From the IMG/VR virus record IMGVR_UViG_2541047813_000005, positions 1-40,559 of that record: a stretch of DNA of 40,559 bases; one strand, written 5' to 3'. This document shows positions 1 through 31,818 of the stretch, piece by piece; position 1 is the stretch's first letter; each line of letters opens with the position of its first letter. The notes under the pieces are model-generated. The model searched no databases and had not been told where the DNA came from. It saw only the letters and a list, made by a program, of their open reading frames with translations. A program made the position numbers and the translations under genes. This DNA comes from a virus. Lineage: Duplodnaviria > Heunggongvirae > Uroviricota > Caudoviricetes.

Positions 1-223
1 TCAGCTATCAATGAGAAAATAAAATATAAATAAATCAATGCATTGAAACAAACCACTTAGCAGATACCACGAAAAATACCATGTCTCAATAATAGAGCTG
101 TCTACAGGCTGTTCAGACGAACAATATGGCCGCTCTACTCCTAATAGAGTCCTTAGCTCGGTCACATCACTAATTTCAACATAGATGTGAACAAAATGAG
201 GCATCAACGCACCTATTCAGTTA

Positions 224-1738
224 GTGTATTTGATATCGTATGTGGCAACAAAAAATGGAGTTACAATCTTGAAAGTAAGCGAGTTATCTAGCCAAATTGG
301 CCGACTTTACGGCTTAAACAACATCAACATAATTATGGGCCGAAACGGTGCGGGAAAAAGTCGTTTCCTTCGTGATATCGAACAAACAATCAGCCAGAAC
401 AAGCAGCAATTTTATGTCCGGTATGTAAGTCCAGAGCGAGCAGGATCGTTCAAGCGTGATGGCACCGTCCTCACAAATATGAGCGACAACCCCGAATGGC
501 TGAGGCACACTCGGGCAGTTAATCAGGCAAGCAACTTCAAAGCTGCATCGGCTATGCTATTTCGCGAGGCCGAGACGCTTTACTTACGTCGACTTGCCAA
601 TACTCCGGAAATTCGAACTGATCTAACGCGAAACTTTCAGACAGACCGATTAAGTAAAATTAATCAGCTTCTCACTAACATTTCGCTCGAGATGGGTAAT
701 GTCGATTATGAGTTTCGATCACTTGTAGATGGTCAGATTATTGATCCGGCCCAAATCAGTAGCGGTGAATCGGAAGCGGTTGCATTAGCCGCGGAAATCA
801 TCTATTTCTTCGACACAATAGATCCGGAGAAATTCAACGTACTCCTCCTCGATGAGCCTGATGTACATCTGCACCCCGACCTCCAAGCTAGACTGGGCAA
901 GCTGATAATCAGTATGCTCGACGAATTTAGAACACACGCGAACAGTATTGCCATATGCTTATCCACCCATAGTTCCCCGCTCGTCTGTTCTCTTGCCGCC
1001 TCCCCATATGTATCAATCGGCACGAAGAGCTTTGCAGTGAATGAAATCTCATTGATACCGGCCAGCGATGAACTTCGAAAGATTGCACCATTCTTCGGGC
1101 ACCCCCTATCGCTTTCTCTTAGCGAAGACGCTGCATTAATTTTGGAAGGAGAGGACGACGAACGAGTCTGGCAACAAGCGGCCAGAACATCACAGGGTCG
1201 AATAAAAATCTTTCCCGTACTAGCAGGTAGCGTAGATCAACAGAGTCAACTTGAGGATTTTTGCGTAGACCTCCTTAGTACACTCTATGACAATCCAATC
1301 GCCTTTTCCCTTCGTGATGGCGATGGTGTAATCAACGAGTCGCTTGAACATCGCCTACCTCTTAAACGCTATCGCTTACGATGCTACGCTATCGAAAATG
1401 TTCTTTTGACTGATTCATGCCTTGCAGTAATGAATGTTACATGGGTGGAATTTGTAGACGCAGCCAAAAAATGGGTTGAGGATAATCAAACACACTCCGA
1501 CATAGCGTTGATTGCAAAACTAATGGAATCGAACGACCGATTGCGTCACAAGAAGATCAAGAAAATCCGCCAACTCGTCTGTGCTATTGTTGAGTGTAAA
1601 AAACCTTGGGAGGTAGTAGTTGGACAAGCAATCGGGGCATTGACCAGAGAAGACCTTGAAAACTCGAATATGTTGATCGATTTTCTTGGAGGAGAGATGG
1701 TCAGCGACGTCATCTTCAGGGACGCAATAAACCCATGA
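224..1738 (+). CDS. ABC-type ATPase fused to Toprim/OLD-like nuclease domain (candidate anti-phage defence protein)
   Basis: 504-aa ORF; Walker A 'GRNGAGKS', Walker B/D-loop 'LLLDEPDVHLHP', H-loop-like 'STHSSP'; C-terminal acidic motifs 'ILEGEDDE' and 'LRDGDG' resembling the Toprim Glu and DxD; likely true start TTG at 269 (GGAG 8 nt upstream). Confidence 0.65.
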   Translation: MYLISYVATKNGVTILKVSELSSQIGRLYGLNNINIIMGRNGAGKSRFLRDIEQTISQNKQQFYVRYVSPERAGSFKRDGTVLTNMSDNPEWLRHTRAVNQASNFKAASAMLFREAETLYLRRLANTPEIRTDLTRNFQTDRLSKINQLLTNISLEMGNVDYEFRSLVDGQIIDPAQISSGESEAVALAAEIIYFFDTIDPEKFNVLLLDEPDVHLHPDLQARLGKLIISMLDEFRTHANSIAICLSTHSSPLVCSLAASPYVSIGTKSFAVNEISLIPASDELRKIAPFFGHPLSLSLSEDAALILEGEDDERVWQQAARTSQGRIKIFPVLAGSVDQQSQLEDFCVDLLSTLYDNPIAFSLRDGDGVINESLEHRLPLKRYRLRCYAIENVLLTDSCLAVMNVTWVEFVDAAKKWVEDNQTHSDIALIAKLMESNDRLRHKKIKKIRQLVCAIVECKKPWEVVVGQAIGALTREDLENSNMLIDFLGGEMVSDVIFRDAINP

Positions 1739-1753
1739 GAATGACCTGATACT

Positions 1754-2149
1754 ATGACCACGATTGATCCGCCCTCATGGTATCAGTATTTATTTTATAA
1801 CCCGCCTCTCAATACACCAAGAGATTGCGGTAAAGTGGAGCAGCATGATTACCAGCTTTATCTGGCGATAAATGATATTGAGCATACGAAAACGAAAGCA
1901 ATGTCATCTAAGACCAATAGTATCTGCGAGCAGTTCCATAAAACGATACTGAACGAGTTTTATCAGGTGACGTTCCGCAAAAAGTTATATGATGATCTTG
2001 AAGCATTACAATCGGTTCTTGATGAATGGCGGGTTCACTATAATAATGAGCGAACCCATCAGGGAAAAATGTGCAGTGGCCGAACGCCGATGGAAACGTT
2101 ACTTGATGGAAAGCACATCTGGGATGAGAAAAACTTAAGCCAGATGTAA
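1754..2149 (+). pseudogene. IS transposase C-terminal remnant (DDE/rve integrase-core fragment)
   Basis: 131-aa ORF abutting the ATPase stop; C-terminal 'EWRVHYNNERTHQGKMCSGRTPMETL' matches the conserved tail of rve-type transposases; no N-terminal or DD part present. Confidence 0.55.
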
Positions 2150-2242: not shown

Positions 2243-3013
2243 ATGGAACCAGAGAAATTTGCTGAAACTGCAATAGGATTTACCAAAAGCCCTCTTGGTA
2301 TCATTGCACTCTTTATTGTTCTCGTTTATGGATTTGCCTCTTTCGTCGTTGGCTTTGGTAATGGCTTATCAGAGCATATAGCTCCCCTTATTTATTTCAT
2401 GGTTTTCTTTCCTGTCATTGTGTTTCTTGGCTTTCTCTGGCTTGTTGCGAAACATCATAATAAGCTTTACGGGCCGTCAGATTTCAAAGATGAAAATAAT
2501 TTTTTAAGAGCGCAAATAGCTACAGCAGCATCATTGACCGCCGCCACAGCAAAACAGCCTGAAAATAGTGCAGGGGTCACTGAAAGCCAACTGCGAAAAA
2601 TCGTCAACGTTGTATCCAATGCAAAACGGCAGAGTAAGCATGAAAAATGGCGAAATCGTATTTTATGGGTGGATGATCGACCAGAAAATAATGTTTACGA
2701 AAGACAGGCATTTGAGGCACAGGGAATAGAGTTCGCTTTAGCTCTTTCAACTGACGAAGCCTTAGAATTGTTAAAAACAAATAAGTTTGCAGCTATTATT
2801 TCGGATATGGATCGCAAAGAAGGGGCGCAAGAAGGTTATGTCTTACTAGAAAGATTACGCGCAATGGGAGACAAAACTCCTTTTATGATCTATGCGTCCT
2901 CAGATCTACCAGAGCACAAGAGAATGGCGAGAGAAAGAGGTGCAATTGGCTCCACTAATCGAGCAGAAGAACTCTTTCAAATTGTCATGGGTGCGATTAC
3001 CAATGGCTCATAA
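2243..3013 (+). CDS. Membrane protein with two N-terminal TM helices and C-terminal CheY-like receiver (REC)-like domain
   Basis: ORF 2237..3013; ATG at 2243 preceded by GAGGA; hydrophobic segments 'LGIIALFIVLVYGFASFVVGFG' and 'LIYFMVFFPVIVFLGFLWLV'; REC-like pattern 'ILWVDD', 'AAIISDMDR', 'FMIYASSD'; AT-rich codon usage. Confidence 0.55.
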   Translation: MEPEKFAETAIGFTKSPLGIIALFIVLVYGFASFVVGFGNGLSEHIAPLIYFMVFFPVIVFLGFLWLVAKHHNKLYGPSDFKDENNFLRAQIATAASLTAATAKQPENSAGVTESQLRKIVNVVSNAKRQSKHEKWRNRILWVDDRPENNVYERQAFEAQGIEFALALSTDEALELLKTNKFAAIISDMDRKEGAQEGYVLLERLRAMGDKTPFMIYASSDLPEHKRMARERGAIGSTNRAEELFQIVMGAITNGS

Positions 3014-3263: not shown

Positions 3264-3409
3264 TTAAAGTTAGTTGGAAAGGCTTAATTTACTATTTATA
3301 GCCAGTCCTACTCCCACTCAATTATTTACGACAACCATAACCAATTGAGTGATAACACTTTTCCAAGCCTCAACTTTTCCCGTACCGTTTTATATACCGT
3401 CACCGGAAA

Positions 3410-3907
3410 TCAGTGCCACGATTTTTGCTTCTTCAGTGAATCGTATTGCTGCTCGCAGAATTCCCCTGCGATACGATACTTTTCAGCCTCAGCTGCTGTT
3501 GCGTTGTAAACTCGGTTGCTTTCTTCAAGCATGTCGGCGAGCACACCGATGACCTTGCTGGCTGGCGTGCCAGGTGGGAAAGATCCGGTATAGTGTTCGG
3601 CGAGCCGCCTGGTTTTGTCAAGCTCGGCGCGCATGCTGTCAGCAGCGGAATTAGCATACTCAGCATCAGCACGCGCCGCATCGATACGGGATTGTGCTTC
3701 ACGTTCAATTTGTGTTTTCTCCTGCTCACGCTGTGACCTTAACTTATCATCAGCCTGTTTCTGATCTTCCTTCGCCTGCGCATACCCGGCATCGTACTGA
3801 CGGATGCCGTGCACATTCCAGGCAACAACTCCTGATATGACCAGAACAGCAAGCATCGCCACGATAAGTAACTGTTTACGGTATGCTTTTACAAATGCCC
3901 AGATCAT
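3410..3907 (-). CDS. Rz-like i-spanin (inner-membrane spanin)
   Basis: 165 aa; N-terminal TM helix then charged coiled-coil-like periplasmic region; last gene of lysis cassette; overlaps endolysin stop. Confidence 0.65.
3433..3681 (-). CDS. Rz1-like o-spanin lipoprotein embedded in the +1 frame of the i-spanin gene
   Basis: Embedded ORF with signal peptide and lipobox '[12 protein letters not shown]', proline-rich mature part; start codon choice (3681 or 3666) uncertain. Confidence 0.45.
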   Translation of the reverse strand: MRRVLMLSMLIPLLTACAPSLTKPGGSPNTIPDLSHLARQPARSSVCSPTCLKKATEFTTQQQLRLKSIVSQGNSASSNTIH

Positions 3908-4533
3908 ACCGCCAGTACCTTACTTGCTGTGATGTACCGCGCACGCCGGTCGTCGATACCGTTTCTGCCACCATTGATAATCAGAGTTACACGTGCAATA
4001 TCGCCGGTATACTTCATGCATCCTTTGCTGGCGAAGAACCACGCCGCGCTACGAGCCGCATATTCGTCCTGCGCCAGCAGTTCAGGGCTCTCCAGCAGGT
4101 CAACCTTCAGACCGTTTCCGCAATCACGATAGTTATTCAAACCGGTAATCTGGATAAGTCCGCGCCCTCGGTAATTCCAGCCATCACCAGGGGCATTGTT
4201 CCCCATGCGTTTGCTGTATACCAGATTTGCGATCGCGCGCTGGCGCTCAAGTGGCAATGGTGGTTCACCAGCACGGCGCCCCAGTGCATTAGCCTGCCCC
4301 TGAGTGAGACGCCCAGCCCGAACGAAGTTAGCCAGTCCGCTGACACTGTAGTTGAAATTCTCCTCCAATCTGGTGAAGCCCCCAGACTCATGCCCGACCT
4401 GAGCAATAAACATTGCCTGATCTTCTGGTTTGCTGATACCAAACTCTTTCATAGCAGAAGTTATATGCGAGAACCAGCGTGCGGCCAGCGCCTCGCTAAT
4501 ACCAGCAGCTCGCTGGAATTGTTTAATCTCCAT
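3904..4533 (-). CDS. Endolysin, glycoside hydrolase family 19 (chitinase-like) type
   Basis: 209 aa; '[12 protein letters not shown]' and '[12 protein letters not shown]' motifs typical of GH19 phage endolysins; between holin and spanins. Confidence 0.8.
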
Positions 4534-4831
4534 GTTTAGACCTCGTTATTTTGAAAATCTGAACGACGTTACCGCGAGTTTTAAGAACCGCAGCAAGCAT
4601 GACAGCGTTGATAATGACCTCAGATAAATCCACAGCCATTGGCGTGCGTAACCAGATTGCATAGACGACACGAACAGGAATACTGGCCGCAGCAACAATA
4701 AGGAAATAAGCAAGCCACCCTCCCCATCTTCGGTGTTGTGAACCGTTACGCCGGAATGTGACAACACGAATTGCTATACCAGTACAAATAACTGCATTGG
4801 TGATAAGCAAAAAAAACTCATGCGTTACCAT
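4523..4831 (-). CDS. Putative holin/antiholin (small membrane protein)
   Basis: 102 aa with several hydrophobic helices, immediately upstream of and overlapping the endolysin gene. Confidence 0.5.
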
Positions 4832-5222
4832 CGTCTTTTCTCCCCGGAATTAACTCGCGTGGATTATCTGAACGGTGATAGAGCCAGATGCCAATTCGAA
4901 CTGCGACGATTGCTGACACGAATGCACCAGCAGAGAAAACAATCCCTTTCTCAAAAGAGTCCTGTGTGATGGTAGGGATCAGGGTGGCTATGCCGATAAG
5001 AATTGATGCTGCTGGTTTGTAAAAGAGAAGACCGCAAAGAAAGCTGAGCATCGACAGGAGCACCCGGCGGCGGATTGGATATTCTACAGCAGAGGTAACA
5101 AAAATTACTGCACCAGCCAAAGAACCCAACGCCACTTCTGGAGGTACTCCAGCTATTACTGCCGCAAGAGAACTCATACTAAGCCACTGATTTAAAGACT
5201 CACTAGTTAGTTGAACTGACAT
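4818..5222 (-). CDS. Putative holin / lysis-cassette membrane protein
   Basis: 134 aa, multiple predicted TM segments, first gene of the lysis cassette, overlaps next gene by 14 nt. Confidence 0.45.
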   Translation of the reverse strand: MSVQLTSESLNQWLSMSSLAAVIAGVPPEVALGSLAGAVIFVTSAVEYPIRRRVLLSMLSFLCGLLFYKPAASILIGIATLIPTITQDSFEKGIVFSAGAFVSAIVAVRIGIWLYHRSDNPRELIPGRKDDGNA

Positions 5223-5378
5223 AAAGACCGCCGATTACTGTGTATAATCCACCCCATTGGTTATTGGGTTTATAATACACATAAACCATATATGAATTAA
5301 ATTTTATGAGTCCACCTATCTCTAAATTACCCGTGAGGTGATATTGTTTCGTATCGCTATTTCCTACAGTATGGATAT

Positions 5379-5740
5379 ATGAATAACAGACATAATTGCT
5401 TTGACGTGATCAGGCTTATCGCATCACTTGTAGTCCTTGTAAGCCATCAATACCCAATTAGCGGCAGACCTGAGCCTTGCTTTTTCGGACTTACGTCGAT
5501 AGGTGGCATTGCTGTAATTGCTTTTTTCGCCCAACTAAACGTAACATCTTCGAAAAATATGCAAAGATTAGGATCAATCAGCGGATGATTTTTATCCATT
5601 CATTTTGCGCGGGTAAGTTATGTGGTGGGTTATCGGCATCCTTTCCGTGGTTCTCATCGTGGCGACGCTTGTCGTTAGGTCACATCTGCAGGATATTGAT
5701 AATGACTATTAGCCATAAGTGGTTTCAACGCTTTGGGTAA
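5379..5740 (+). pseudogene. Truncated/frameshifted acyltransferase-3 family (O-antigen acetyltransferase-like) lysogenic-conversion gene remnant
   Basis: N-terminus 'MNNRHNCFDVIRLIASLVVLVSHQ' matches the acyltransferase_3 start motif; reading frame breaks after about 70 aa; only about 120 codons remain before the convergent tailspike gene. Confidence 0.5.
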
Positions 5741-8078
5741 TGTAGTAGGCCACCCAGTTACCTGACTCATTAAATCTGTAAGCACAATTCAAACGAATCG
5801 GACCGATATTATTGAATGTGCTGAGCATTGTCCCACCAATACCATTTTTAACCAAAACTGTTGGGTTAGCAGATGATGACCCGGCTATCTTTATGTAAAC
5901 AATATCACCAACTACGGCAGACACTTTATCCAGCTCAATTGAATAGGTGAAGGCACCTGTACCAGCACTCATGATGATGTAGTACCTGGAGGGGTCAAGC
6001 CTTGGTTCTATTGTTAAAGTCCCAGCTGCTGCCACAGTGTGGTCGAGAAAGGTTCTCACCTGGAGGCTTGTATTTTGTGGAAACCTCGCCCTTGCCCTGT
6101 TGAAAGCGGGATCCATCACTGCGTAAAGTGGGCGAACGTTGTTTCTGTAGGATCTAACCAGAACATCACTACCGTGGAAGTCGTTGCTTTGTGATCCAGA
6201 AAGTGAGTGAACTGCCTCGACCTGGTTAATTGTCCCCTCTCCGACATAGCAGTCAGGGCTATTAACCACAAAATCGACGAACCTGATGTTTTGCGCAAAG
6301 TATGAGTTCAGGCGGAATGTGCTGTTTGTCGAGTTAACTACTGACTGAGCATTTGTGATTGAGTTGCCGACGATTGCGTGAATAGAGTTGATAGTCACTT
6401 CCTGGCAGTCAACCAGAAGCACCGCATCGTAAACAAGGTCAGTGGCAAATCCATCACTTTTATAGACTTCAATGTTTCCGATTTGCAGGGATGGCCTGTT
6501 TCTGGCTCGTACTCCGTTTTGCTTAACGTTGACGTGTACGTTATCGATAAATCCACCTGGCTCGCTGGCTGGGTTGGTTAGGTCGATTCCAACAAATGCC
6601 CCAAGCCCTTCGCTGTCCTTGACAACAAACCCTTCAACGCCGTCACTCAGTTCGACAAACTTCCACCAGTTGTTTGTGTTGAATCTGATGTCTACACCTA
6701 CGTTACCTCGAACGGACTTCATCTTAACGGCCACGCACTGGAATTGCGTACCTTCAACCTGCTGCACGTTATAGCTGCCGTATCCAGTGACATGCACTGA
6801 GCCGCTAAAAGCGTCGCCAATCAGCATGCCATTTACCCACGAATACTGTAGCACCGTCAGGTCATCACGCCCCTGTTGAGGACCGAAATGCGCTCCTAAT
6901 TTGAACTTCGCCCGGTGCGCAGTGAACATTTCCTCCCTGAGTGGAGTAAGAATACCGTACCGACCATTTCCGTTTTCCAGGCGAATCATGAATTTTCCGA
7001 TGTCGGCTTCTCCCTGGGAATAACTGGACTCCGGGTAGCTAACGGCCAGACCTACGGTCGATGCTGAGTCAGCATCCTTCACGCATAACTGGGTTTCTGT
7101 CCCAGCCGTATAAATTTTCACGCCATAGGGAACGGTTACGCACGCCGTCAGTGCGGAATCCCCTGTATGGTAGTTATCCATATCCAGAGAAACACCATTT
7201 GTAGGGCTCACCAGATATTTTCCTGCTGGCCAATAGAGTACCTTAGCTCCGCAATTGGACCAGCGGTTTAGGGCAAGAGTGTCATCTGCAATACCATCTC
7301 CCTTTGCTCCGAAGTGGTAAGGGGTAAGAAGATAGGTGTTGTGCTGATGTTGAGTAATAGTTACAGAATTAGCATAAGGTTGTTTAACTGCAACTAAAGC
7401 ATCCCCCTTTCCATCGGAAGAACTTGCTAACTGAATAAGCACATCAGATGCTGAACCAGATGGAGGAATAACAACAATCGCATTACCATCATTATCAAAT
7501 GCTGGCATCATATTCCGCCGAACTGCTGCTGGAGGTAACTGATTTATTGGCTCAGGAACTCGGAGAGTTCGGCTAAGGTTAGAGAATACAATGGTATCTA
7601 CATAGTTTTTTGTAGCTGCATCCTGAGGGTCGCGTGGGTCTTTCAGATTACGAATATAGTTATTAAGTGCGTCATACCAATTCGCTATACTGGATGGCTT
7701 ACACAACGCCAGCCGGAACCAGCTTCGAACCTGCTGAATCAGCATCGTTAGCTTATCAAAAGCATCCTCATGCACTTCTGCAAAGAACTTACCCTGATTA
7801 CGCAAATCAGTTTCCTGCGTAACCGGGAGGTCTCGTGATATAGAAATCTGATAACCGTTAGCCAACGCCTTCGACAGAATTACATTACCGCCGTTGTACC
7901 CTCCCGCACCAGTTACTGTGTAATCAGTATCAAGAGCCAGCACAGCAATATTTTCATCAAGGTCAACCACCTGAACAACCAGGTCTGATTTTTTGAAAAT
8001 ACGGAAGGTATACGGAAATGATGTCGTAACGCCGTTACCTGTGTATTCGTTGTGGTCAACTTCGGTTGAGACCGTCAT
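5709..8078 (-). CDS. Tailspike / tail fibre protein (receptor-binding)
   Basis: 789 aa; N-terminus 'MTVSTEVDHNEYTGNGVTTSFPYTFRIF' resembles the conserved particle-binding domain of podovirus tailspikes; Gly/Asn/Val-rich body consistent with beta-helix. Confidence 0.75.
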   Translation of the reverse strand: MTVSTEVDHNEYTGNGVTTSFPYTFRIFKKSDLVVQVVDLDENIAVLALDTDYTVTGAGGYNGGNVILSKALANGYQISISRDLPVTQETDLRNQGKFFAEVHEDAFDKLTMLIQQVRSWFRLALCKPSSIANWYDALNNYIRNLKDPRDPQDAATKNYVDTIVFSNLSRTLRVPEPINQLPPAAVRRNMMPAFDNDGNAIVVIPPSGSASDVLIQLASSSDGKGDALVAVKQPYANSVTITQHQHNTYLLTPYHFGAKGDGIADDTLALNRWSNCGAKVLYWPAGKYLVSPTNGVSLDMDNYHTGDSALTACVTVPYGVKIYTAGTETQLCVKDADSASTVGLAVSYPESSYSQGEADIGKFMIRLENGNGRYGILTPLREEMFTAHRAKFKLGAHFGPQQGRDDLTVLQYSWVNGMLIGDAFSGSVHVTGYGSYNVQQVEGTQFQCVAVKMKSVRGNVGVDIRFNTNNWWKFVELSDGVEGFVVKDSEGLGAFVGIDLTNPASEPGGFIDNVHVNVKQNGVRARNRPSLQIGNIEVYKSDGFATDLVYDAVLLVDCQEVTINSIHAIVGNSITNAQSVVNSTNSTFRLNSYFAQNIRFVDFVVNSPDCYVGEGTINQVEAVHSLSGSQSNDFHGSDVLVRSYRNNVRPLYAVMDPAFNRARARFPQNTSLQVRTFLDHTVAAAGTLTIEPRLDPSRYYIIMSAGTGAFTYSIELDKVSAVVGDIVYIKIAGSSSANPTVLVKNGIGGTMLSTFNNIGPIRLNCAYRFNESGNWVAYYITQSVETTYG

Positions 8079-8182
8079 GTTAAATCTCCAGATAGTCGCA
8101 GCACCCGTTGCGCCGCATATCTGGTTATTCTATTACCTGAAAAACCAGATATGGATAGCAAGACTGCAAATACGAATAGATA

Positions 8183-8197
8183 TTACCTTTCGGGTAA
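8183..8197. promoter_or_regulatory. Palindromic operator-like site ATTACC-TTTCG-GGTAAT
   Basis: Perfect TTACC-N5-GGTAA dyad in the intergenic region between the tailspike start and the small plus-strand ORF. Confidence 0.45.
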
Positions 8198-8272
8198 TTT
8201 GCAAAACGTGCTGGATAGCCAATAAATTATTTGGTACTGTTTATTAATACAGTTATTACATGGAGAGATAAG

Positions 8273-8530
8273 ATGCAGCGGTATCACTATCCACTGGAAG
8301 AAGGATTTACCGAAAGGATTCACACGCCGGGAGGCGTCAGGTCACTGGTGGAGGGATCGCACTTGATGAAATTACTCCGGGATCTCGATAAGGATGGATT
8401 TAATGTCGATGGCCCACTTGCCGAACTGACTGCACTGATTAACTACGTCACCAGCTCACAGATGTCTATGCAGGATCTGCAAACACATCTCGACTATTGT
8501 GCCGAACAACTACGAAAACAAACCACATAA
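8273..8530 (+). CDS. Hypothetical small protein (85 aa), opposite strand to late genes
   Basis: ORF 8231..8530; ATG 8273 with GGAG 7 nt upstream; operator-like site upstream; no recognisable motif. Confidence 0.4.
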   Translation: MQRYHYPLEEGFTERIHTPGGVRSLVEGSHLMKLLRDLDKDGFNVDGPLAELTALINYVTSSQMSMQDLQTHLDYCAEQLRKQTT

Positions 8531-8552
8531 AGAAAAGGCCGCGAAAGCGGCC
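8528..8552 (-). terminator. Hairpin terminator after small membrane-protein gene
   Basis: ggccgcgaaagcggcc hairpin (8537..8552) followed on the minus strand by UUUUCU. Confidence 0.5.
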
Positions 8553-8561
8553 TGTGACATG

Positions 8562-8858
8562 TCACGTCCCTTTTCTGAATGATAGCCATTCGAAAAATGA
8601 TGACATTCCACCGCAGACAATAGCAAAGATGATCCCACCAAAGAAGAGAAGGCCAGCCTGCCACCACTCCCACCGCCATACATCCACAGCGCCAACCATA
8701 CCAACAATCGCTCCAACAAATGGAATATAGCTCACGATGAAAGCAATGGGGGCTGCAATTATCCAGTGCAATCCCCACCATGATTCAAGCCCAGCCATAA
8801 TTGCTGCCAACTGAAAAAGACCAACGACGATATAAACAATGAATCCTATAGCTTGCAT
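8562..8858 (-). CDS. Small integral membrane protein (hypothetical)
   Basis: 98 aa, almost entirely hydrophobic with Trp-rich segments; stop codon embedded in GTGACATGTCAC palindrome. Confidence 0.5.
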   Translation of the reverse strand: MQAIGFIVYIVVGLFQLAAIMAGLESWWGLHWIIAAPIAFIVSYIPFVGAIVGMVGAVDVWRWEWWQAGLLFFGGIIFAIVCGGMSSFFEWLSFRKGT

Positions 8859-9053
8859 GTAGTCACCTATTTACCCAGTAAAAATCAGAGGCCTCCCCTC
8901 AATAAGGCTTGCAACAAGAACTATTCCCTGCACAACAAAGATGAACCAGCAAATAGCTTGAGTCTGAGGGTTAAGAAAATATTTGTAGCGGTCAATAAAC
9001 AACAATCCACCAGAAATTATCACACTCAAAATAATTAAAAACACAACACTTCC

Positions 9054-11528
9054 TTATTGCGGAGTGACATCCTGAGGTCGCCACCAGTATGTCTGGTTAA
9101 ACTCTTTCTTCGAACGTTGCTCCATTTTACGCAAATAGCCTGGTGAAAAATACTCCTGCATCTGGTTAAAGATCATGTGATCGAGAGCCGCCTTCAAGTA
9201 CCAGAGATTCGCACCAGGCATCAAACCTTTCCCCAGCTTCACCAGATCACCACCAGTCTGCTCACTCTTCCCTTCCACAGCATTTAACGGTATGCCCTGA
9301 GCAATCTTCACTACGTCATCAACCAGACCAGCTACCGGGCCAAGCATCGACGCCAGCGCGCCGCTTCCGTACCTAGTGTGATCTGACAATAAAAAGTCAC
9401 CGTAAAGGCCAAGACCACCACCTTTCAGTAGAGCACCAAGCCAAAATTTAGCAGCATCTTCTCCTGTCATCTCGCGAGGATTACGACCAGACGCAAGGTC
9501 GTTAAGTTGCTGCGACAAAGCGCCAAGAATGGTCGTACTGGCAATAAACGTCGCAATATATGCCGCACGCCCACCAGCAGACGGCATACCCATAGCGCGT
9601 GACCAGTGACGCATAACCACCGAGATAGGGAACGATTTAAACAGGAAAACACTTCTCGTTAATTCACCTTTCCATGTTCCACGCTGAATACCAGAACCGG
9701 TTATCAGTTGCTCACGTGCTCCCGGTGTAATAACAGCCATATCAACTTCTTCAGTTACGGCACCGAGCAGTTTACGCATTGCCTCAAATTTCACGCGTTC
9801 AGGCTCACCAAGATGTTTAACTGCTGAATCAGGGATACGCATAATGCTTTCCGGTGTCAGCATCGTATTATTGCCGTTCCCCCAGTCCTCCTGTTGCGCC
9901 AGCTTCCATACGCTCCAGTCTGTGTCAGTAATCCCTTTGCTTTTCAGGATACGAAAATCAGAATCATCGAGGCTACGAAGGTCTGGTGTCCGTGACACTA
10001 CTTCTCCCAGGCTTCCCATCATGGTTACGCCATAGGCGCGCTTGTGCGCATCTGACCATGCTGTAAGCCCACTGGCACGCATTACCGCCGTTGCAGCCCA
10101 ACGAGACACAGACGGCCCCATATTATCCATCGCCCAGCGGTTAACGCTGCCAAGTAGAGATTCCATCGCCAGGCCAGCGCGGCGCGCCCGCGCAAGCTCA
10201 GTACGGTTCGTTGGGTCCATAGCTTCAAGCTGGTTGCGAAATAACTGGTTCATTGGAAGGTTGGTAACCTTCGCAGACAGATACATGGTTCCAAGATCAG
10301 AGAACGATGACAGCAACGCGGATCCGAGTCTGCTGGCAACCAGCCAGTTGCGGATATTGTCAGACCATCGCGCGATGTGCGGATTCGCTACAGGCTGTGT
10401 TTTTCCGGAAATAAAGTTGTACAAGTTCTCTGTTTTGTTCGCCAGACGCTCGACGCTACCGGTTTTACTCGGGTTAGCTGTTGCCGTTTCTGCCTTAACC
10501 TGATCAAGAAGGGAGCGGAAAACATGATCGGGGTTTGGACCATATGTTTCCACCAGAGCAATATCTTTACTGATACCTTCCAGGTGACCGACCATGATTT
10601 CCCATAGAGAGCGATCGCCATAAAGTTGCTGATATTGCAGATAGGAATCTGCATCTTTGAAATGTATCTGTCGTGATGCATTACCACGGTTAGCACGTGC
10701 GCCGGAAATTCGCATTCCGGTATCAGTAAGCTTATTCAGCCCACCAGTAGCGATCGTGTTATAAGCCTCTCCAAGAAATGCAGACAACTCGGCATCGTTC
10801 ATCAGTTGTCCATCGGCTCGGATATAATATTTGCGATCCAGCTTACCTATAACATCGCTAACCCACTTATCCTTTGATACCGCCCCAACCTTTTCCATAG
10901 AATGATGTTGAGGGATCCCCCAGTTTTCGAGATAGCCAATGTCCCCACCAGCATCATTAAACCGGCGGCGCAGTAGATCTGTCACTTCTCTCCACGCCTT
11001 AGCACCTTTTCTTGCTTTAACATTGCCAGTATTTTGCCCTCGCATTTCATATACCAGGTCACGTACGCCAGCTTCATCTTCAAACAGGCCAAAAAAGCGA
11101 GGATCAACTGCTTCAAATGCCTCTTGCAATTGACTCAATGCATAATCACGAGTGGCTTTTGTTCTGGACTCAACAGAGAGGAAATTCGATTTACCGTCTG
11201 CATTAAAAGCAATAGTACGGTTAAGAGCGCCAAGTTTCCCATCAGCCCCTTGATAGCTATTGATAAATTTATCCAATCTCTGACGTGCGGCTATAGTGAG
11301 GGCCACACGACGTTTCTTTAATGCCGCTTCTCGCTGTAATTCTTCAGATGCCAATTGTGCTGCTCGATATAGCCGCTCTGATTCGGAAAGTTGTCTCCAC
11401 GACATCGGGTCATCACGAGCAATGGAGCGCATATTTCGATAAATGCGGTCTTCAATGTTCTGTATTTCTCGCTCCGTTAACGTGCGCTGCGCCGCCTGCT
11501 GGACCGCTTGTATACATTCCTGTCTCAT
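9054..11528 (-). CDS. Large virion protein (putative internal core/ejection protein)
   Basis: 824 aa; position between tail tubular genes and tailspike in a podovirus-type late operon; no catalytic motif recognised. Confidence 0.6.
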   Translation of the reverse strand: MRQECIQAVQQAAQRTLTEREIQNIEDRIYRNMRSIARDDPMSWRQLSESERLYRAAQLASEELQREAALKKRRVALTIAARQRLDKFINSYQGADGKLGALNRTIAFNADGKSNFLSVESRTKATRDYALSQLQEAFEAVDPRFFGLFEDEAGVRDLVYEMRGQNTGNVKARKGAKAWREVTDLLRRRFNDAGGDIGYLENWGIPQHHSMEKVGAVSKDKWVSDVIGKLDRKYYIRADGQLMNDAELSAFLGEAYNTIATGGLNKLTDTGMRISGARANRGNASRQIHFKDADSYLQYQQLYGDRSLWEIMVGHLEGISKDIALVETYGPNPDHVFRSLLDQVKAETATANPSKTGSVERLANKTENLYNFISGKTQPVANPHIARWSDNIRNWLVASRLGSALLSSFSDLGTMYLSAKVTNLPMNQLFRNQLEAMDPTNRTELARARRAGLAMESLLGSVNRWAMDNMGPSVSRWAATAVMRASGLTAWSDAHKRAYGVTMMGSLGEVVSRTPDLRSLDDSDFRILKSKGITDTDWSVWKLAQQEDWGNGNNTMLTPESIMRIPDSAVKHLGEPERVKFEAMRKLLGAVTEEVDMAVITPGAREQLITGSGIQRGTWKGELTRSVFLFKSFPISVVMRHWSRAMGMPSAGGRAAYIATFIASTTILGALSQQLNDLASGRNPREMTGEDAAKFWLGALLKGGGLGLYGDFLLSDHTRYGSGALASMLGPVAGLVDDVVKIAQGIPLNAVEGKSEQTGGDLVKLGKGLMPGANLWYLKAALDHMIFNQMQEYFSPGYLRKMEQRSKKEFNQTYWWRPQDVTPQ

Positions 11529-11533
11529 TTAAT

Positions 11534-13336
11534 TTAACCTCTCAAGAAACACGCCACAGCAACATCAAACAGGCTGGAATCCTGTATTGCCTGCTCACTT
11601 TCCCTGTTCGCTTCATCCAGTACTTCACGCGCACTGCGCGATTGTGGATTACCATCATCATCCAGCACGGTGATTATCATATCAGGTGATTCAAGCAGCG
11701 AGTCTTCAGCTATGCGCAGATCAATATCTCCTGCCGGATCTGACATCATTTTTTGTTCTGCCTGTTGCAATATTTTATCAGGCTCAAAAGGAGCTACTTC
11801 GTCTGGCGTCCTGACCTCTGCTGTTTTATAGAATGAAACAGCCTGAGCATTAAGTTCACTTTCTGCCTGCTGTCTCCGAGCCAGTTCTGCTCGAGCTTCA
11901 AAAAACTGACCGCCAGGCTCGTGCGGTGCCAACGCGTTACGGGAAAATTCCAGGCGTTCTTGTGCCTGCCGGATTCGTTGATCAATATCGCGAAGTCTGG
12001 CCTGTTTATCTGATCGAGCACGAGACAAAGCTTTACCGCTACCGGTTGGCTCTTCTGCAAGAATTTGTGCACGCTGTTCAGTGAGATTTTCAATAATTCG
12101 TTGGCTATTAGCGATTTCAGACTGGTAAACCTGTCTATCTCCACGCGGCAAAAGCTGCGCGGCCTGTTCTTCAAGCAACCGATTTTCTATAGCGCGCGCC
12201 GTTACTCCATCATCTACAGATGACAGAGCCTCATTAACTGCCTGAGACAGCAGACTCTTGCGCCCAGGAATTTCACTGAAAGATGCAGACTCAACAATGC
12301 TGGCAACGTCTACAGGTCTCCCCTGGCTAACATCAGACATAGCTTTTCGCAGAGCCTGAATGTGAGAATTGCGCGAAAGCACGTTGATCGGCACGCCGGG
12401 CGCAATATCAATTTCAGCATGATGAGCGGCATTCGCCGCCAGTGCAGCATCGATATCAACTGGTGAAAAATTTGGTGCGTTTGTAGACTCGCCGCGAGAG
12501 TTAATAAATCTGCCGACACCACCAAACGCCACCCCAAGAACAGCATCAATAGCAATTGCCTGTCGATCCAACACATCATACTGGTTAGCCATTTCGCTAT
12601 AGCCACCATCACGAAGTGTTTTTGCAGTAAGCCCACGCTGTGCCATACCGAACGCAATATTTGTACCTGCGGCATAGGCAATATCTGGCGTTGCACGTAC
12701 TGCTGTTGCTGCGGCGCGTCGCACTGAACTCTCACCCGTCCGCGCAAGCTGAGCCGCCACACCTTCCGCCAGCGCACCACCAGCACGTAACCCGAGGCTC
12801 ATAGGGATCAGTGTTCCGGCACCAGCAGTAATGCCCTGCACTAATCCCGCTTCCTGCGCCGTCCTGAAATCAACACCCTGTGCTGTCAGCCGTTCAAACT
12901 CAGAAAAACCCTGTAGCGAAGTTACCGCCGCTGCACCTCCGACAGGACCACCGAGCGTTGTACCGACAACAGCCTGCCCGCCCATATCGAACAACCCATA
13001 AAGAACCTGCCCGGCGGTTCCGGTTGTCGCGGCATCAGGCGTCAGCCGCTTAACCTGCTGCTCTGCTAGTTTTCTCTGCTCGGCAATGTATGAAACTGAA
13101 GTATCATTGAGCGAGGTGTTTTCGTTAATAAACTGAGCAATCGGGGATACGATTTTATCCATCCCTGCCCATAGCAACTGATCTGGCTTTGCCACCAGCC
13201 CGGAGTACAAACCAGACAATGCCGCTCCTACAGCATTGTCGAAAAAACCAACATCGCTGTTAAAGCCAGCTGGATTTGATGCTGCTTCGTCAAGCTGCTG
13301 ATTCTGGTTTACTGGATTAAGGCCAAAGTAACTCAT
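11534..13336 (-). CDS. Virion internal/ejection protein (Ala/Gly-rich)
   Basis: 600 aa, low-complexity Ala/Gly-rich middle, in structural operon. Confidence 0.6.
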   Translation of the reverse strand: MSYFGLNPVNQNQQLDEAASNPAGFNSDVGFFDNAVGAALSGLYSGLVAKPDQLLWAGMDKIVSPIAQFINENTSLNDTSVSYIAEQRKLAEQQVKRLTPDAATTGTAGQVLYGLFDMGGQAVVGTTLGGPVGGAAAVTSLQGFSEFERLTAQGVDFRTAQEAGLVQGITAGAGTLIPMSLGLRAGGALAEGVAAQLARTGESSVRRAAATAVRATPDIAYAAGTNIAFGMAQRGLTAKTLRDGGYSEMANQYDVLDRQAIAIDAVLGVAFGGVGRFINSRGESTNAPNFSPVDIDAALAANAAHHAEIDIAPGVPINVLSRNSHIQALRKAMSDVSQGRPVDVASIVESASFSEIPGRKSLLSQAVNEALSSVDDGVTARAIENRLLEEQAAQLLPRGDRQVYQSEIANSQRIIENLTEQRAQILAEEPTGSGKALSRARSDKQARLRDIDQRIRQAQERLEFSRNALAPHEPGGQFFEARAELARRQQAESELNAQAVSFYKTAEVRTPDEVAPFEPDKILQQAEQKMMSDPAGDIDLRIAEDSLLESPDMIITVLDDDGNPQSRSAREVLDEANRESEQAIQDSSLFDVAVACFLRG

Positions 13337-15846
13337 TGCGGAATATCTCCGGAGAATCTCTGACGCTTCTGTGTCAGATCAAGAACAACGGGAGAACCAT
13401 CATCTTTTAGCAGATAACCAGTACCAAGTTTCACCAGGTACTGACTATCGCCGTAACTTTGCAAACCATACTGACCAGGAGGTGTTTTTATCCCGGTGCC
13501 GACCACTTGTTCATTCCAAGCCTGATTAACCTGCTTATCGAATTGCTCTGCAGACATTCCCCACGGCAAAAGAACATTCCCCATTCCGTTATAGTCATGC
13601 ACGCCACCTGTAGCTACGTTAACAGCCTGTTTCCAGATATCATTGTCAATTTCGCCTGATACCACGCCTTTTTTCGCCATCACACCAGCGTAATAGTCCT
13701 TTGCGATCTCGTATGCCATTGATGCCCCCTGAGCATCACCAGCAAATGCATCCTTCACCATGTCAGAAAACTCAAGGCGAAGATCAGCATCTTTAGGCAT
13801 CGGAATACCTTTCGCGTGATCAGTACCTTTACGAGCCGCCGCGCCAGCAAGAATTGTCTGCGCAGCGGTTTCAGGAGACACGGAAACATCCGGATTAAAC
13901 CAATTTTTTTCTGCCAAAATACCACCTGGCTTATCCATCAGTATCCCGGCAACGGCAGCAGATGGAGCGTTGGCACTGATCTGCTGTAGTGCTGACATAT
14001 ACACCTGCCCACCACCAGTGCTCTGCCTGATGGTATCGAGATATGCTGCCTGTTGGGAAACGGGCGCATCACGAAAGAAAACACCGATCTGATTGGCCTC
14101 GTCTTTGGAAAAGAACGTCAGTGGAGTGCCATATGACTTAGCAAGGTCACTGACCTGAGCAGCACGCAAGGCAACGCTCTGTCCAAAGTTATCCTTATTG
14201 CTCATGTCGATAGGCTTTGCCTGTCCGGCGGCAAGAGAGAACTGTACAGGATCAGCCTGTCGCTGCTTTATCACCTGACTTGCAGCCGACACAACGTTGT
14301 CATAAAGAGCGGCTCGTGCCGCATAACCCTCCCCTGTCTCACCAGTATCCGGGCGTAATTGCTCAACATATGCTGTAATGCTGCTTGTCGGCATGTTGCG
14401 GAAAGAGCCTATATACTGTCCGGCGATCTGCGTATTCTTAAACTCGGTATATCGCAGGTTTCCTTCTCTGACTCCATAAGCTGCAATAAAATCATCCTCA
14501 CCAGGTGGGTTAGGAAATTCAACGCCACGCATATACGCAGCTGCCGCATCGCGAACCTGGCTGTCAATCATCGTTTTATATTCAGCCTGCTGCTGCCGAC
14601 GCAGTTGATCTGCCTGTCGCATAAAACTTGCCTGCGCCTCAGGAGATGCCGCATCGAATGCTGCATTACCGGTATAGCGTTTGGTGTTGGTTGGAATTGT
14701 TGATAAACCAAGTGCTGCACTGACACCAGCAGTTAACTGCTGATCACTGTATGGCTGGCTACCGTTCTCATGATGGATAATGGCTGCACAAAGCGCCTTC
14801 AGGGTATCAGGATTAGATGCATCGAGAGGCTCATCAGCAGAAACGCCAAGTTGTTCGCACACTGCTTTGATATACGACATAGTGTCATTTTTATCAGTAG
14901 GCGGTGCCCAGCGATTAATTATCTCGCTGACGGTATCAATACCCTGCCTCTGATACGACATCAGGTTCCGCCCTAATGCACGAATCCCGTGTTCAGGTGT
15001 TTCGAATTTAGCAAATCGACCATCATCACCGGTCTGGCCTACCCACGGATTAGTTTTGCTGTATTCGAGATTTCCTGGGTTATTGTTGCGTATGCCACGG
15101 GCACGCTCGGAAGAGTCACTATCTGCTACAGCACGGCGAGCTCCAGCAGCAGTATCACTTAACTCGCCATTACTTTGGATGAATGCGGTCGCATTGTTTG
15201 CCGACCACTGGGACAATGCGGCATCAGCAACCTTCTCTTTAAACTCGATTTTCTTGGCCTGGATTTGCTCGTCACTCCAGCCATGTGCAATGCCGTAATC
15301 CTCAATTTGCTGGAAAGTTTGCTTATTAGCCAATACGTATGCGGCGTTGTCGCCATACAATGCTGCGGCATTTTTACCATTGTTCAGCAGCGTAGCCTGA
15401 AACTGGACTTCTTCGTAGGCATTTATTTGCCCTATCTCGTGCCGCCCTGCCTGCGTAGTGAACTGAATGCGCTGCTGCTGCGCCTGCTGCATGAAAGCAT
15501 TACGAGCCTGTTCATCCGGCAGCGACATAGCCAGTTGCTCGACCTGGGCATCAAACTTCTGCGTATACTCCTGACCTTTTCCAATAGCATTTTTCCCTTT
15601 CAGGTTAAGCAAACCTGTTTCAGGGTTATTCAGCAGATCGCTGCTTATCTGGCTTAAGCTAAGAGAAGCATCCTGAGCCATAGCAACATTCGCACGCTGT
15701 TTTGCCTGCGCAATAATACCTGCATATTGCTCTGCAACATCGCCAAGTACATCACCGACATTTGGTGTCTGAAACGATGAGAATCCCTGCGTCGAAATCC
15801 CTCTGCTCTGAACCTGACGGCCCGATGTTGTTGGTACAACTGGCAT
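13333..15846 (-). CDS. Large internal virion protein, possibly with peptidoglycan-hydrolase-like segment
   Basis: 837 aa; segment 'GIRNNNPGNLEYSKTNPWVGQ...FETPEHGIRA' recalled as conserved in phage virion-associated proteins; overlaps neighbour by 4 nt. Confidence 0.6.
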   Translation of the reverse strand: MPVVPTTSGRQVQSRGISTQGFSSFQTPNVGDVLGDVAEQYAGIIAQAKQRANVAMAQDASLSLSQISSDLLNNPETGLLNLKGKNAIGKGQEYTQKFDAQVEQLAMSLPDEQARNAFMQQAQQQRIQFTTQAGRHEIGQINAYEEVQFQATLLNNGKNAAALYGDNAAYVLANKQTFQQIEDYGIAHGWSDEQIQAKKIEFKEKVADAALSQWSANNATAFIQSNGELSDTAAGARRAVADSDSSERARGIRNNNPGNLEYSKTNPWVGQTGDDGRFAKFETPEHGIRALGRNLMSYQRQGIDTVSEIINRWAPPTDKNDTMSYIKAVCEQLGVSADEPLDASNPDTLKALCAAIIHHENGSQPYSDQQLTAGVSAALGLSTIPTNTKRYTGNAAFDAASPEAQASFMRQADQLRRQQQAEYKTMIDSQVRDAAAAYMRGVEFPNPPGEDDFIAAYGVREGNLRYTEFKNTQIAGQYIGSFRNMPTSSITAYVEQLRPDTGETGEGYAARAALYDNVVSAASQVIKQRQADPVQFSLAAGQAKPIDMSNKDNFGQSVALRAAQVSDLAKSYGTPLTFFSKDEANQIGVFFRDAPVSQQAAYLDTIRQSTGGGQVYMSALQQISANAPSAAVAGILMDKPGGILAEKNWFNPDVSVSPETAAQTILAGAAARKGTDHAKGIPMPKDADLRLEFSDMVKDAFAGDAQGASMAYEIAKDYYAGVMAKKGVVSGEIDNDIWKQAVNVATGGVHDYNGMGNVLLPWGMSAEQFDKQVNQAWNEQVVGTGIKTPPGQYGLQSYGDSQYLVKLGTGYLLKDDGSPVVLDLTQKRQRFSGDIPQ

Positions 15847-15858
15847 CTTATTATCCCC

Positions 15859-30397: not shown

Positions 30398-30398
30398 T

Positions 30399-31757: not shown

Positions 31758-31818
31758 CTTTACCCTCGCTTATCCACATAACTTATTGATTACATTGATA
31801 ACTAAAAAGATCGTCGAT

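Follow-up and report, generated by a model that had tools for sequence, protein, structure and literature searches.

PARIS combines an ABC ATPase, AriA, with a DUF4435 Toprim tRNase, AriB, and represents class 4 of the OLD family. Its trigger is an anti-restriction protein (Ocr), and its substrates are tRNA-Lys(UUU) and related tRNAs. AriA comprises 464 aa in its PDB chain and AriB has a mass of about 35 kDa (PMC11464382); the model of the merged form, AriAB, has 694 positions. The insertions of AriA build a hexameric scaffold as well as the AriB docking and trigger surfaces, the effector is freed from this cage, and dimerisation of AriB involves the helical part of its DUF4435 domain (PMC11464382). 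Fused AriAB genes have been described as two merged clades that arose from clade 9 (PMC9122126; PMC11464382), and a review treated the question of whether they work like PARIS or make up a separate class as unsettled (PMC10568477). The class 1 OLD proteins (P2 Old, Thermus scotoductus OLD and Vibrio cholerae Vc OLD) are encoded by single, partnerless genes and join an N-terminal ABC ATPase to a C-terminal Toprim domain with a Glu and a DxD motif. Class 2 is represented by GajA of Gabija, whose invariant Toprim glutamate, E379, was mutated to obtain catalytically dead GajA (PMC10781630), and class 3 by the OLD nuclease of retron Eco8. A non-defence ATPase of the same family, the archaeal Cran1, has also been described (PMC12796447).

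The window, i.e. the whole stretch of DNA that was analysed, comprises the 40,559 nucleotides of the IMG/VR virus record IMGVR_UViG_2541047813_000005. According to its ORF list, an uninterrupted ORF runs on the + strand from a GTG at 224 to 1738 (504 aa). RefSeq starts the same gene at a TTG at window position 269, which gives a protein of 489 aa (WP_000868467.1) labelled 'AAA family ATPase'. A Shine-Dalgarno GGAG (256-259) is located 9 nt 5' of this TTG, and both are kept in the P. aeruginosa orthologue; on this sequence comparison, the conserved TTG 269 is likely to be the true start. Residue positions are given in the 489-aa numbering, and the features of the gene are as follows.

269..1738, + strand: fused ABC-ATPase/Toprim coding sequence, 489 aa, stop included (ORF list, RefSeq, P. 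aeruginosa comparison)
269..1063, + strand: ABC ATPase head, aa 1-265 (Pfam, motif invariance, model and fold matches)
338-361, + strand: Walker A (motif invariance)
758-775, + strand: signature-like SSGESE (motif invariance)
842-862, + strand: Walker B (motif invariance)
962-976, + strand: H-loop (motif invariance)
1124..1408, + strand: Toprim unit, aa 286-380 (invariant columns, DSSP topology, GajA alignment, AriB/DUF4435 profiles)
1145-1147, + strand: codon of E293, the predicted catalytic Glu, inside ILEGEDDE (1139-1162)
1313-1327, + strand: RDGDG, containing D350xD352
1385-1399, + strand: YAIEN, containing E376/N377
1409..1735, + strand: C-terminal helical bundle, aa 381-489 (pLDDT 87-96, conservation)

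All of the motifs quoted in the initial annotation were found in the protein: GRNGAGKS (aa 24-31), LLLDEPD (aa 192-198), STHSS (aa 232-236), ILEGEDDE (aa 291-298) and RDGDG (aa 349-353). The alignment of 40 homologues, with identity down to 27%, showed K30, S31, S164, S165, D195, H234, E293, D350, D352 and N377 to be invariant, and therefore the motifs are not due to chance.

The N-terminal 265 aa constitute a complete ABC ATPase with all nucleotide-binding motifs. Pfam AAA_15 and AAA_21 matched at 53 and 45.6 bits, respectively, which exceeds both their gathering scores and the thresholds of 32 and 27 bits used for these profiles in PARIS detection (PMC9122126). The fold search with the AF2 model agreed, its best matches being the heads of AriA, OLD, GajA, PtuA and Rad50, so the ABC-type ATPase head proposed earlier is borne out by both approaches. 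Among solved structures, the best sequence match of the ATPase was AriA. The Q-loop region and the signature motif are separated by only ~78 aa, which form short helices only in the model; there is thus no long coiled coil.

The C-terminal 225 aa consist of a Toprim unit and a helical bundle. In the confident part of the AF2 model (pLDDT 83-92), DSSP assigned the order beta-alpha-beta-alpha-beta-beta, with E293 at the end of strand 1 and D350xD352 at that of strand 3, which are the canonical positions, so that the structure prediction suggested as a check returned a Toprim topology. In the family profile alignment E293 pairs with GajA E379, and the spacing from Glu to DxD is 57 residues compared with 53 in GajA. 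Topology, invariance and this pairing all agree with the earlier proposal that the Glu of ILEGEDDE and the DxD of LRDGDG are the Toprim residues. The metal-binding site (E293, D350, D352 and E376) is intact, and the protein is predicted from these residues to be a nuclease. The helical bundle, located where DUF4435 has its helical part, carries an invariant K431 and a conserved KPWE motif (1598-1612). A stand-alone AF2 model of the C-terminal domain, built on a 12-sequence alignment, was dropped (pLDDT 58.8, Toprim part 30-50), and its Foldseek comparison with the PDB gave noise (best E 1.9).

The profile searches suggest that the C-terminal domain is closest to AriB and DUF4435, consistently across the family and weakly for the query protein. 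The PADLOC AriB model matched the isolated C-terminal domain with an E value of 9.5e-6 and 17 of the 24 family members, the AriAB model matched the isolated domain of six of the 24, and Pfam DUF4435 (PF14491) matched 14 of them (best E 4e-6). For the query itself, DUF4435 scored 13.1 bits on the whole protein and 15.4 bits on the isolated domain, below the Pfam cut-off of 27. A C-terminal fragment in the same 90% cluster is named 'DUF4435 domain-containing protein' by NCBI. Pfam OLD-like_TOPRIM (PF20469) did not match the query protein and found just 3/24 family members (best E 8e-5); a few members matched the PADLOC Old model. The HMM search proposed in the initial annotation was therefore positive for AAA_15 and AAA_21, whereas for the query protein DUF4435 remained below its cut-off and OLD-like_TOPRIM was absent. 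The matches of NCBIfam and PHROGs to the protein were sub-threshold or confined to the ATPase. The profile of the C-terminal domain retrieved no AriB chain from the PDB sequences at E<=10, and in a collection of 5.8 billion proteins this profile and that of the Toprim core retrieved same-family fragments only and no Pfam-annotated DUF4435 protein.

By sequence, the protein appears most like two-protein PARIS but much smaller, with both activities on one 489-aa chain. The PADLOC AriAB model matched across the domain junction (50.8 bits, E 2.6e-14). This is what would be expected of a catalogued merged PARIS gene, called PARIS_I_merge or PARIS_II_merge in DefenseFinder or AriAB in PADLOC, whose product works like other merged PARIS proteins, and this reading is a real possibility: such fused genes have been described, AriA is the nearest relative of the ATPase and AriB/DUF4435 are the nearest profiles of the C-terminal part. 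Moreover, the DefenseFinder thresholds for merged AriAB are 80 or 20 bits, and the lower of these, only 20 bits, belongs to the AAA_21+DUF4435 profile (PMC9122126). However, the match covers positions 220-523 of the 694 in the AriAB model, and the protein is about 200 aa shorter. Positions 9-39 of the family profile correspond to AriA 21-51 and positions 101-232 to AriA 303-431, while AriA ~51-303 (IS1, coiled coil and IS2) has no counterpart; from the gap between the two aligned blocks, ~190 AriA residues are missing. The compact protein thus has none of the insertions that form the scaffold and the docking and trigger surfaces, and the release of an effector from a cage is impossible for a fused chain. 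The sub-threshold score of DUF4435 also speaks against this reading. Furthermore, the family is sharply bounded: it consists of 236 clusters at 50% identity, nearly all of them of 480-500 aa, and none is linked to annotated DUF4435 proteins. Weaker junction-crossing genome matches (L079, L085, L087, L088 and L091) were rejected as AriAB; they belong to other fused families without Pfam Toprim or DUF4435.

The second alternative is a class-1-OLD-like DNA nickase or exonuclease that acts on phage or host DNA, as with P2 Old, Vc OLD and GajA, and is not a tRNase. The single-gene ATPase-Toprim architecture that defines class 1 OLD is the architecture found here, and the top Foldseek matches of the AF2 model are full-length ATPase-Toprim proteins. 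The best of them was the retron Eco8 OLD nuclease (E 8e-9, aligned over the whole length), and they include GajA and Thermus OLD (6p74), the last of which was also among the sequence matches; PADLOC ATPase-Toprim_I-B models matched as well. The family profile aligns with GajA without a break, starting at the signature motif and taking in Walker B, the H-loop and the Toprim Glu, and the few members that matched OLD-like_TOPRIM or PADLOC Old point in the same direction. Nevertheless, a DNA nuclease of this kind seems unlikely, as OLD-like_TOPRIM found 3/24 members versus 14/24 for DUF4435 and 17/24 for AriB, the helical bundle after the Toprim unit suits the DUF4435 layout, and the best sequence match of the ATPase is AriA and not an OLD protein. 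The compact protein is also shorter than Thermus OLD (528 aa), GajA (578 aa) and the Eco8 effector (750 aa), its Toprim unit and helical tail are nearer to DUF4435 than to class 1 OLD, and GajA profiles match only its ATPase part. A UvrD-like GajB partner was not found either: no helicase ORF adjoins the gene in the window, and the 58 related loci share no neighbour. A type I-B retron would place a reverse transcriptase and an msr/msd non-coding RNA next to the effector gene. The ORFs in 1-3300 encode the ATPase, an IS fragment and a receiver protein, with no reverse transcriptase ORF among them, and Rfam gave no match at E<=0.1 in 1-3500. The kinship with OLD, GajA and PARIS-type proteins claimed in the initial annotation is nonetheless upheld by the AF2 model, which matches AriA, OLD and GajA, and by the AriB/DUF4435 profiles.

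The gene is located in a 3.3-kb integrase-less islet that has a repeat of the guaA 3' end on either side and lies outside the prophage. The features surrounding the gene are listed below.

1..268, + strand: left end of the islet and conserved non-coding leader (junction seen in UPEC132 and P. aeruginosa)
1739..1812, + strand: conserved 3' flank of the basic islet (P. aeruginosa homology)
1826..2149, + strand: IS481-family transposase remnant, C-terminal integrase-core, pseudogene (rve_3 5.5e-10, NCBIfam IS481 9e-23, RefSeq pseudogene)
2243..3013, + strand: orphan receiver-domain protein with a hydrophobic N-terminal part (Response_reg 1.8e-7, RefSeq 'response regulator')
3308..3322, - strand: last 15 nt of guaA (ending in IEWE and the stop codon), right repeat copy, att core common to islet and prophage (end of UPEC132 identity)
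3323..40559, no strand assigned: prophage at the same guaA att site, context only (Pfam content)
39309-40559, - strand: prophage integrase

Window bases 1-3 (TCA) are the end of the left guaA-3' repeat copy, and the left junction, at which ...TCATTCCCACTCA meets GCTATCAAT..., was observed in UPEC132 and P. aeruginosa. UPEC132 has this 3.3-kb segment immediately next to guaA, and the prophage is absent; the match to this genome stops at 3322, and genomes with the prophage only, which number in the hundreds, align from about 3310. The gene does not belong to the prophage, as UPEC132 has the islet but no prophage, and of the 28 E. coli genomes with the gene, only four show the prophage junction seen here. 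The Pfam content of the prophage includes integrase, RecT, PDDEXK, MT-A70, DUF2514 and GH19. The earlier description of the gene as next to the prophage end is correct as regards distance (the prophage begins at ~3323, 1.6 kb downstream). The connection with the prophage border is indirect: the gene lies in an att-flanked islet of its own, which uses the guaA site in common with the prophage.

E. coli positions 1-1812 are 74% identical to positions 11-1843 of the P. aeruginosa islet. The IS481 remnant, absent from the latter, is by this comparison a later insertion into the islet, and the receiver-domain gene is an addition to the cargo in the E. coli islet. The latter gene was considered as a partner and rejected, because it is missing beside the orthologues in all other genera. 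A small antisense ORF (1-207, minus strand) was likewise discarded: the leader alignment with the P. aeruginosa islet contains frame-breaking indels, and the conservation is therefore at the DNA level only.

Repeat-flanked integrase-less islets were found in E. coli, P. aeruginosa, Mesorhizobium and a Verrucomicrobiota MAG, with the ATPase-Toprim gene as their sole conserved cargo. Their target is the guaA 3' end in Gammaproteobacteria and tRNA-Arg in Mesorhizobium, and five genera show the linkage to the guaA 3' end, where a prophage or ICE lies in tandem. Cis-mobilisable elements are att-flanked, integrase-less islets accreted beside ICEs or prophages. The islet, as distinct from the protein, resembles them in lacking an integrase, in its direct repeats of the 3' end of the target gene and in having a tandem neighbour with an integrase at its site, which is a prophage in E. 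coli and an ICE in P. aeruginosa; it differs in the shortness of the guaA repeats (9-13 nt), and its mobilisation is putative.

Members of the family occur in many phyla and have a fixed length of about 480-500 aa, near 487. The hosts include uropathogenic and animal E. coli, Klebsiella, Enterobacter, Serratia, Pseudomonas and many environmental phyla. In E. coli, where 28 of 5426 complete genomes (~0.5%) carry it, the gene is rare and horizontally acquired, and its GC content is lower than that of the host in every genus checked. The identity across proteobacterial classes is 66-94%, more than is usual among defence genes. The 58 related loci have no partner gene in common, in line with the earlier remark that none was obvious. 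Six of these 58 loci, all distant, carry the gene inside type I R-M operons of the order hsdM-hsdS-X-hsdR, and further distant loci adjoin AbiJ-like, Mrr, GmrSD or DNA methylase genes. On two viral contigs the gene adjoins a CI-like repressor or an integrase, a prophage lysogeny module setting. In the high-identity clade, it stands alone amid housekeeping genes in most loci. The gene was not found in deposited phage genomes or true plasmids, and a literature search on the accession WP_000868467.1 returned no paper.

A non-immune role, either in the maintenance or addiction of the islet or a neighbouring element or in cellular nucleic-acid processing as proposed for Cran1, would fit a gene that has no conserved companion in its integrase-less islets, is very highly conserved and has housekeeping neighbours at many loci, but it is highly improbable given the sporadic distribution, the foreign GC content in every host, the R-M, Abi, Mrr, GmrSD and lysogeny-module settings of distant members, and the intact, invariant predicted nuclease site.

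The protein belongs to the OLD/PARIS superfamily and is complete on a single chain, and we consider it probable, at roughly 70%, that it acts as a one-gene abortive-infection or anti-phage module. It is a compact fused PARIS/OLD-type variant, for which a defence role and a target are inferred. The suggestion of a compact or atypical variant made from the sequence alone holds in view of the fixed length near 487 aa, the ~190 aa of AriA insertions that are missing and the lack of a conserved partner gene. In the proposed mechanism, the ATPase head would serve as an ATP-dependent sensor and switch, and a phage-derived trigger would alter its nucleotide state or its oligomer contacts. The covalently attached Toprim domains could then be freed to pair into an active Mg2+-dependent nuclease. 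As cage release is impossible in a fusion and the cage insertions of AriA are missing, activation would be intramolecular or by oligomer rearrangement. The most likely target would be host tRNA, leading to a translation stop; it is favoured by analogy with AriB, the closest profile, and the main alternative activity would be DNA nicking, as in OLD or GajA. Both the trigger and the choice between tRNA and DNA are suggested purely by analogy. The gene would travel in small, repeat-flanked islets that lack an integrase and have no other conserved cargo. It is also found in R-M operons and in the lysogeny modules of prophages.

A more far-reaching version of the single-chain reading is doubtful. 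It would make the family a distinct, minimal OLD/PARIS-type immunity, in which a 55-kDa chain senses and kills without the AriA coiled-coil scaffold or a partner, through rearrangement of its own oligomer, and is spread by att-flanked mini-islets that carry nothing else, lack an integrase and ride in tandem with prophages and ICEs that target guaA or tRNA genes.

The family represents a very small, strongly conserved and widespread fusion without the AriA scaffold insertions and therefore offers a tractable test of how an ABC ATPase gates an attached Toprim nuclease. It may constitute an unannotated defence gene, carried as 'AAA family ATPase' in RefSeq, in the hosts named above, and the islet provides a concrete case for the build-up of integrase-less defence cargo at the guaA 3' attachment site. 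If the gene is merely a member of merged PARIS, the gain is better annotation only. Split forms of the gene were seen at two loci (L011 and L012), where they represent either a two-gene version or a frameshift.

The initial annotation, in which a compact defence gene of the OLD, GajA or PARIS type with an ATPase and a Toprim domain had been proposed, quoted motifs that were all found in the protein. The ORF and the features of its start are as follows.

224-1738, + strand: ORF of the ATPase-Toprim protein in the window, opened mechanically at GTG 224
256-259, + strand: Shine-Dalgarno-like GGAG, 9 nt 5' of the TTG at 269-271

In 28 E. coli chromosomes, RefSeq starts the same gene at TTG, window position 269, and names the 489-aa product 'AAA family ATPase' (WP_000868467.1). 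Both GGAG and TTG are kept in the P. aeruginosa orthologue, the DNA farther upstream carries indels, and the 489-aa numbering was therefore adopted. A TTG start at the equivalent position is common to the P. aeruginosa, Sphingobium, Rhodoplanes and Acetobacter orthologues and may limit how strongly a potentially toxic product is translated.

A complete ABC ATPase is joined in this protein to a Toprim unit whose acidic site is intact and invariant. Pfam AAA_15 (53 bits) and AAA_21 (45.6 bits) both exceeded their gathering scores, and among 40 homologues with identity down to 27% the Walker A K30/S31, Walker B D195, H200, Q206 and H-loop H234/S235 are invariant, as are S164/S165 of the signature-like SSGESE. 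The full-length AF2 model, based on an alignment of 35 homologues, reached a mean pLDDT of 81.3 and a pTM of 0.71; its top Foldseek matches in the PDB, aligned over the whole length, were the retron Eco8 OLD nuclease and GajA, with PtuA, the cohesin and Rad50 heads and Thermus OLD next in rank. Model confidence is low in one stretch only (window 431-550, aa 55-94, pLDDT 33-52), which is among the best conserved in sequence, with P55, E56, R57, A58, G59, F61, R82, N85 and Q86 invariant in the close clade, and could be a flexible functional loop, e.g., a Q-loop region or a sensor surface.

In the same model, residues 288-380 form a strand-helix-strand-helix-strand-strand unit (pLDDT 83-92), in which strand 1 ends at E293 and D350xD352 follows strand 3; a helical bundle (pLDDT 87-96) comes next. 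H278, E293, G294, D350, D352, C372, N377 and K431 are invariant across the family. A profile running from the C-terminal end of the ATPase through the Toprim core aligned continuously with GajA (E 5e-10), the family vEGeDD falling on GajA LIEGPSE, so that E293 corresponds to GajA E379, the invariant Toprim glutamate that is replaced in the catalytically dead mutant E379A (PMC10781630). The distance from this glutamate to the DxD (D432/D434 in GajA; PMC10781630) is 57 residues, whereas it is 53 in GajA.

The protein is closest to the components of PARIS, which comprises the ABC ATPase AriA and the DUF4435 Toprim protein AriB. AriA was the best solved-structure sequence for the family profile (6.4e-15). 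In the printed alignment, profile positions 9-39 correspond to AriA 21-51 and positions 101-232 to AriA 303-431, so that about 190 AriA residues have no counterpart. These residues make up the insertions and coiled coil with which AriA builds its hexamer and its contact surfaces for the trigger and for AriB (PMC11464382). The isolated C-terminal domain matched the PADLOC AriB model (E 9.5e-6), and among the C-terminal domains of 24 diverse family members the PADLOC matches were to AriB (17), AriAB (6) and Old (1), while Pfam DUF4435 matched 14 (best 4e-6) and OLD-like_TOPRIM and DUF3226 three each. The window protein itself scored only 13-15 bits against the DUF4435 cut-off of 27; NCBI applies the name 'DUF4435 domain-containing protein' to a C-terminal fragment of 233 aa in the same 90% cluster.

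The chance that existing profiles for merged PARIS already capture this protein is substantial, about one in three. The fused PADLOC AriAB model spans the domain junction (E 2.6e-14), with only model positions 220-523 of 694 covered. The protein has the architecture that defines the OLD family and an ATPase of the kind required for PARIS, but it lies below the DUF4435 cut-off and lacks the AriA insertion architecture, and the partner genes of Gabija and of the retron types are absent; in view of this combination we class it as a fused, compact variant within the PARIS/OLD kind and do not regard its membership of PARIS as proven.

The variant belongs to a compact family. When 1.84 billion cluster representatives were scanned in full with HMMER, the C-terminal domain matched just 236 clusters at E<=0.001, nearly all of them 480-500 aa long and carrying the domain at about 270-480. 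The closest clade is strikingly well conserved (66-94% identity, constant length) and extends across Enterobacterales, Pseudomonas, Rhizobiales, Sphingomonadales and others, and a genome scan revealed full-length relatives, always over residues ~13-482, in Bacteroidota, Actinomycetota, Patescibacteria, Verrucomicrobiota, Planctomycetota, Cyanobacteria, Gemmatimonadota, Nitrospirota and Chloroflexota. Profile searches reached neither annotated DUF4435 proteins nor the AriB chain in the PDB; the family is thus a discrete lineage, and its link to DUF4435/AriB is consistent but weak.

In E. coli the gene lies in an islet without an integrase (window 1-3322), which is 100% identical in UPEC132, where it stands between yfgI and guaA without the prophage; in K-12 just 92 nt separate these genes. 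The left insertion boundary lies between ...TCATTCCCACTCA and GCTATCA..., and the right one reads ...CTACTCCCACTCAAT...; both repeat the last codons of guaA (IEWE*) in direct orientation, the new stop codon coming from the element. Besides the ATPase-Toprim gene, the islet contains:

1826-2149, + strand: C-terminal fragment of an IS481-family transposase, pseudogene
2243-3013, + strand: orphan protein of 256 aa, hydrophobic in its N-terminal part, with the receiver domain at the C-terminus

The receiver protein (weak cREC_REC match, E 0.006) is confined to the E. coli form of the islet and has neither a recognisable output domain nor a cognate kinase nearby. The transposase fragment is ~82% identical to an ISSod13-family copy in the phage-plasmid RCS47 and explains most of the ~600 partial matches to 1-3300 in E. 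coli records, mostly plasmid-borne.

The DNA that follows is a separate element at the same att core:

3323-40559: prophage, with its integrase (39309-40559) ending exactly at the window edge
directly at the prophage left end: lysis cassette with a DUF2514 spanin-like protein and a GH19 endolysin
5709-8078: 789-aa tailspike-like protein with a pectate-lyase-type domain
36005-37764: RecT and PDDEXK recombination pair
38452-39114: MT-A70 methyltransferase

Genomes that have the prophage alone match the window from ~3310, and the islet-prophage junction is present in only four of the 28 islet-bearing genomes; NZ_CP095086.1 is 100% identical over the junction segment compared (window 2900-3800).

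The ATPase-Toprim gene is horizontally mobile and sporadic. Small integrase-less islets between direct repeats of the 3' end of the target occur at window 1-3322 and in the locus set (L001 14990-18322; L003, from P. aeruginosa, 5705-7650; L004 5426-8224; L030 1998-4332). The P. aeruginosa orthologue (80% identity) occupies a 1.93-kb islet at the guaA 3' end between TCACTCCCACTC repeats; from end to end, non-coding flanks included, this islet shares 74% identity with E. coli 1-1812. In Mesorhizobium a 2.75-kb islet has no cargo other than this gene and is bounded by a 49-nt repeat that corresponds to the 3' half of tRNA-Arg(CCT), and in a Verrucomicrobiota MAG a 2.2-kb islet lies between copies of a 126-nt repeat. 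As with cis-mobilisable elements, an integrase-bearing element stands in tandem at the islet's own site, namely the prophage in E. coli and, in another P. aeruginosa strain, an ICE after the islet. In five gammaproteobacterial genera the guaA 3' end (...IEWE*; window 3308-3322; also at L093, L095 and L013) acts as a hotspot of accretion. There, Enterobacter, Serratia and Vreelandella included, the gene invariably marks the outer edge, and the DNA between it and guaA varies: the receiver protein, a gene for a HipA-like kinase next to a small ORF (the kinase gene in Serratia), unknown ORFs, a prophage or an ICE. In every genus checked, the gene had a lower GC content than the flanking host DNA.

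At six of 58 distant loci (L028, L054, L062, L066, L074 and L077; 25-37% identity) the gene is embedded in a type I R-M operon, next to or between hsdM, hsdS and hsdR, in some cases overlapping hsdS and hsdR by 4 nt; a GmrSD gene comes after the member at L054 and a YgjP-like metallopeptidase gene is alongside that at L062. Other distant members adjoin AbiJ-like, Mrr, GmrSD or DNA methylase genes, and two non-E. coli members on viral contigs of IMG/VR stand beside a CI-like repressor or an integrase. No neighbour gene was conserved across the 58 related loci, and the gene was not found in deposited phage genomes or true plasmids.

We infer that the gene is a one-gene anti-phage or abortive-infection module, in which the ATPase would detect a phage cue and license the Toprim nuclease to act on a candidate substrate, either tRNA, as for AriB, or DNA, as for OLD/GajA. 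In PARIS, AriB is sequestered by the AriA hexamer and set free on Ocr binding (PMC11464382); a covalent fusion without the scaffold insertions must be controlled otherwise, and whether fused AriAB proteins operate in the manner of two-protein PARIS or make up a class of their own is the question that a review of the OLD family leaves open (PMC10568477).

Just 3' of the stop codon, a stretch conserved in E. coli and P. aeruginosa (window 1754-1812, + strand; L003 7490-7560) reads MT..(5)..PSWYQYLFY.PPLN and is in frame with the IS fragment in E. coli (ORF 1754-2149); it may encode a small peptide or be a conserved site in the DNA, e.g., for recombination. On two metagenomic contigs (L011 3303-4897 and L012 3295-4756) the family appears as two adjacent ORFs of ~221-230 aa and 251-298 aa; these are either frameshifted genes or genuine two-gene versions that divide ATPase from Toprim, as AriA/AriB do. 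Five loci (L079, L085, L087, L088 and L091) encode longer AAA_15/AAA_21 proteins (516-670 aa) whose C-terminal region, of the form E…DxD…E-x-EN-Y, escapes every Pfam Toprim and DUF4435 model; this suggests further uncatalogued ATPase-Toprim fusion families.
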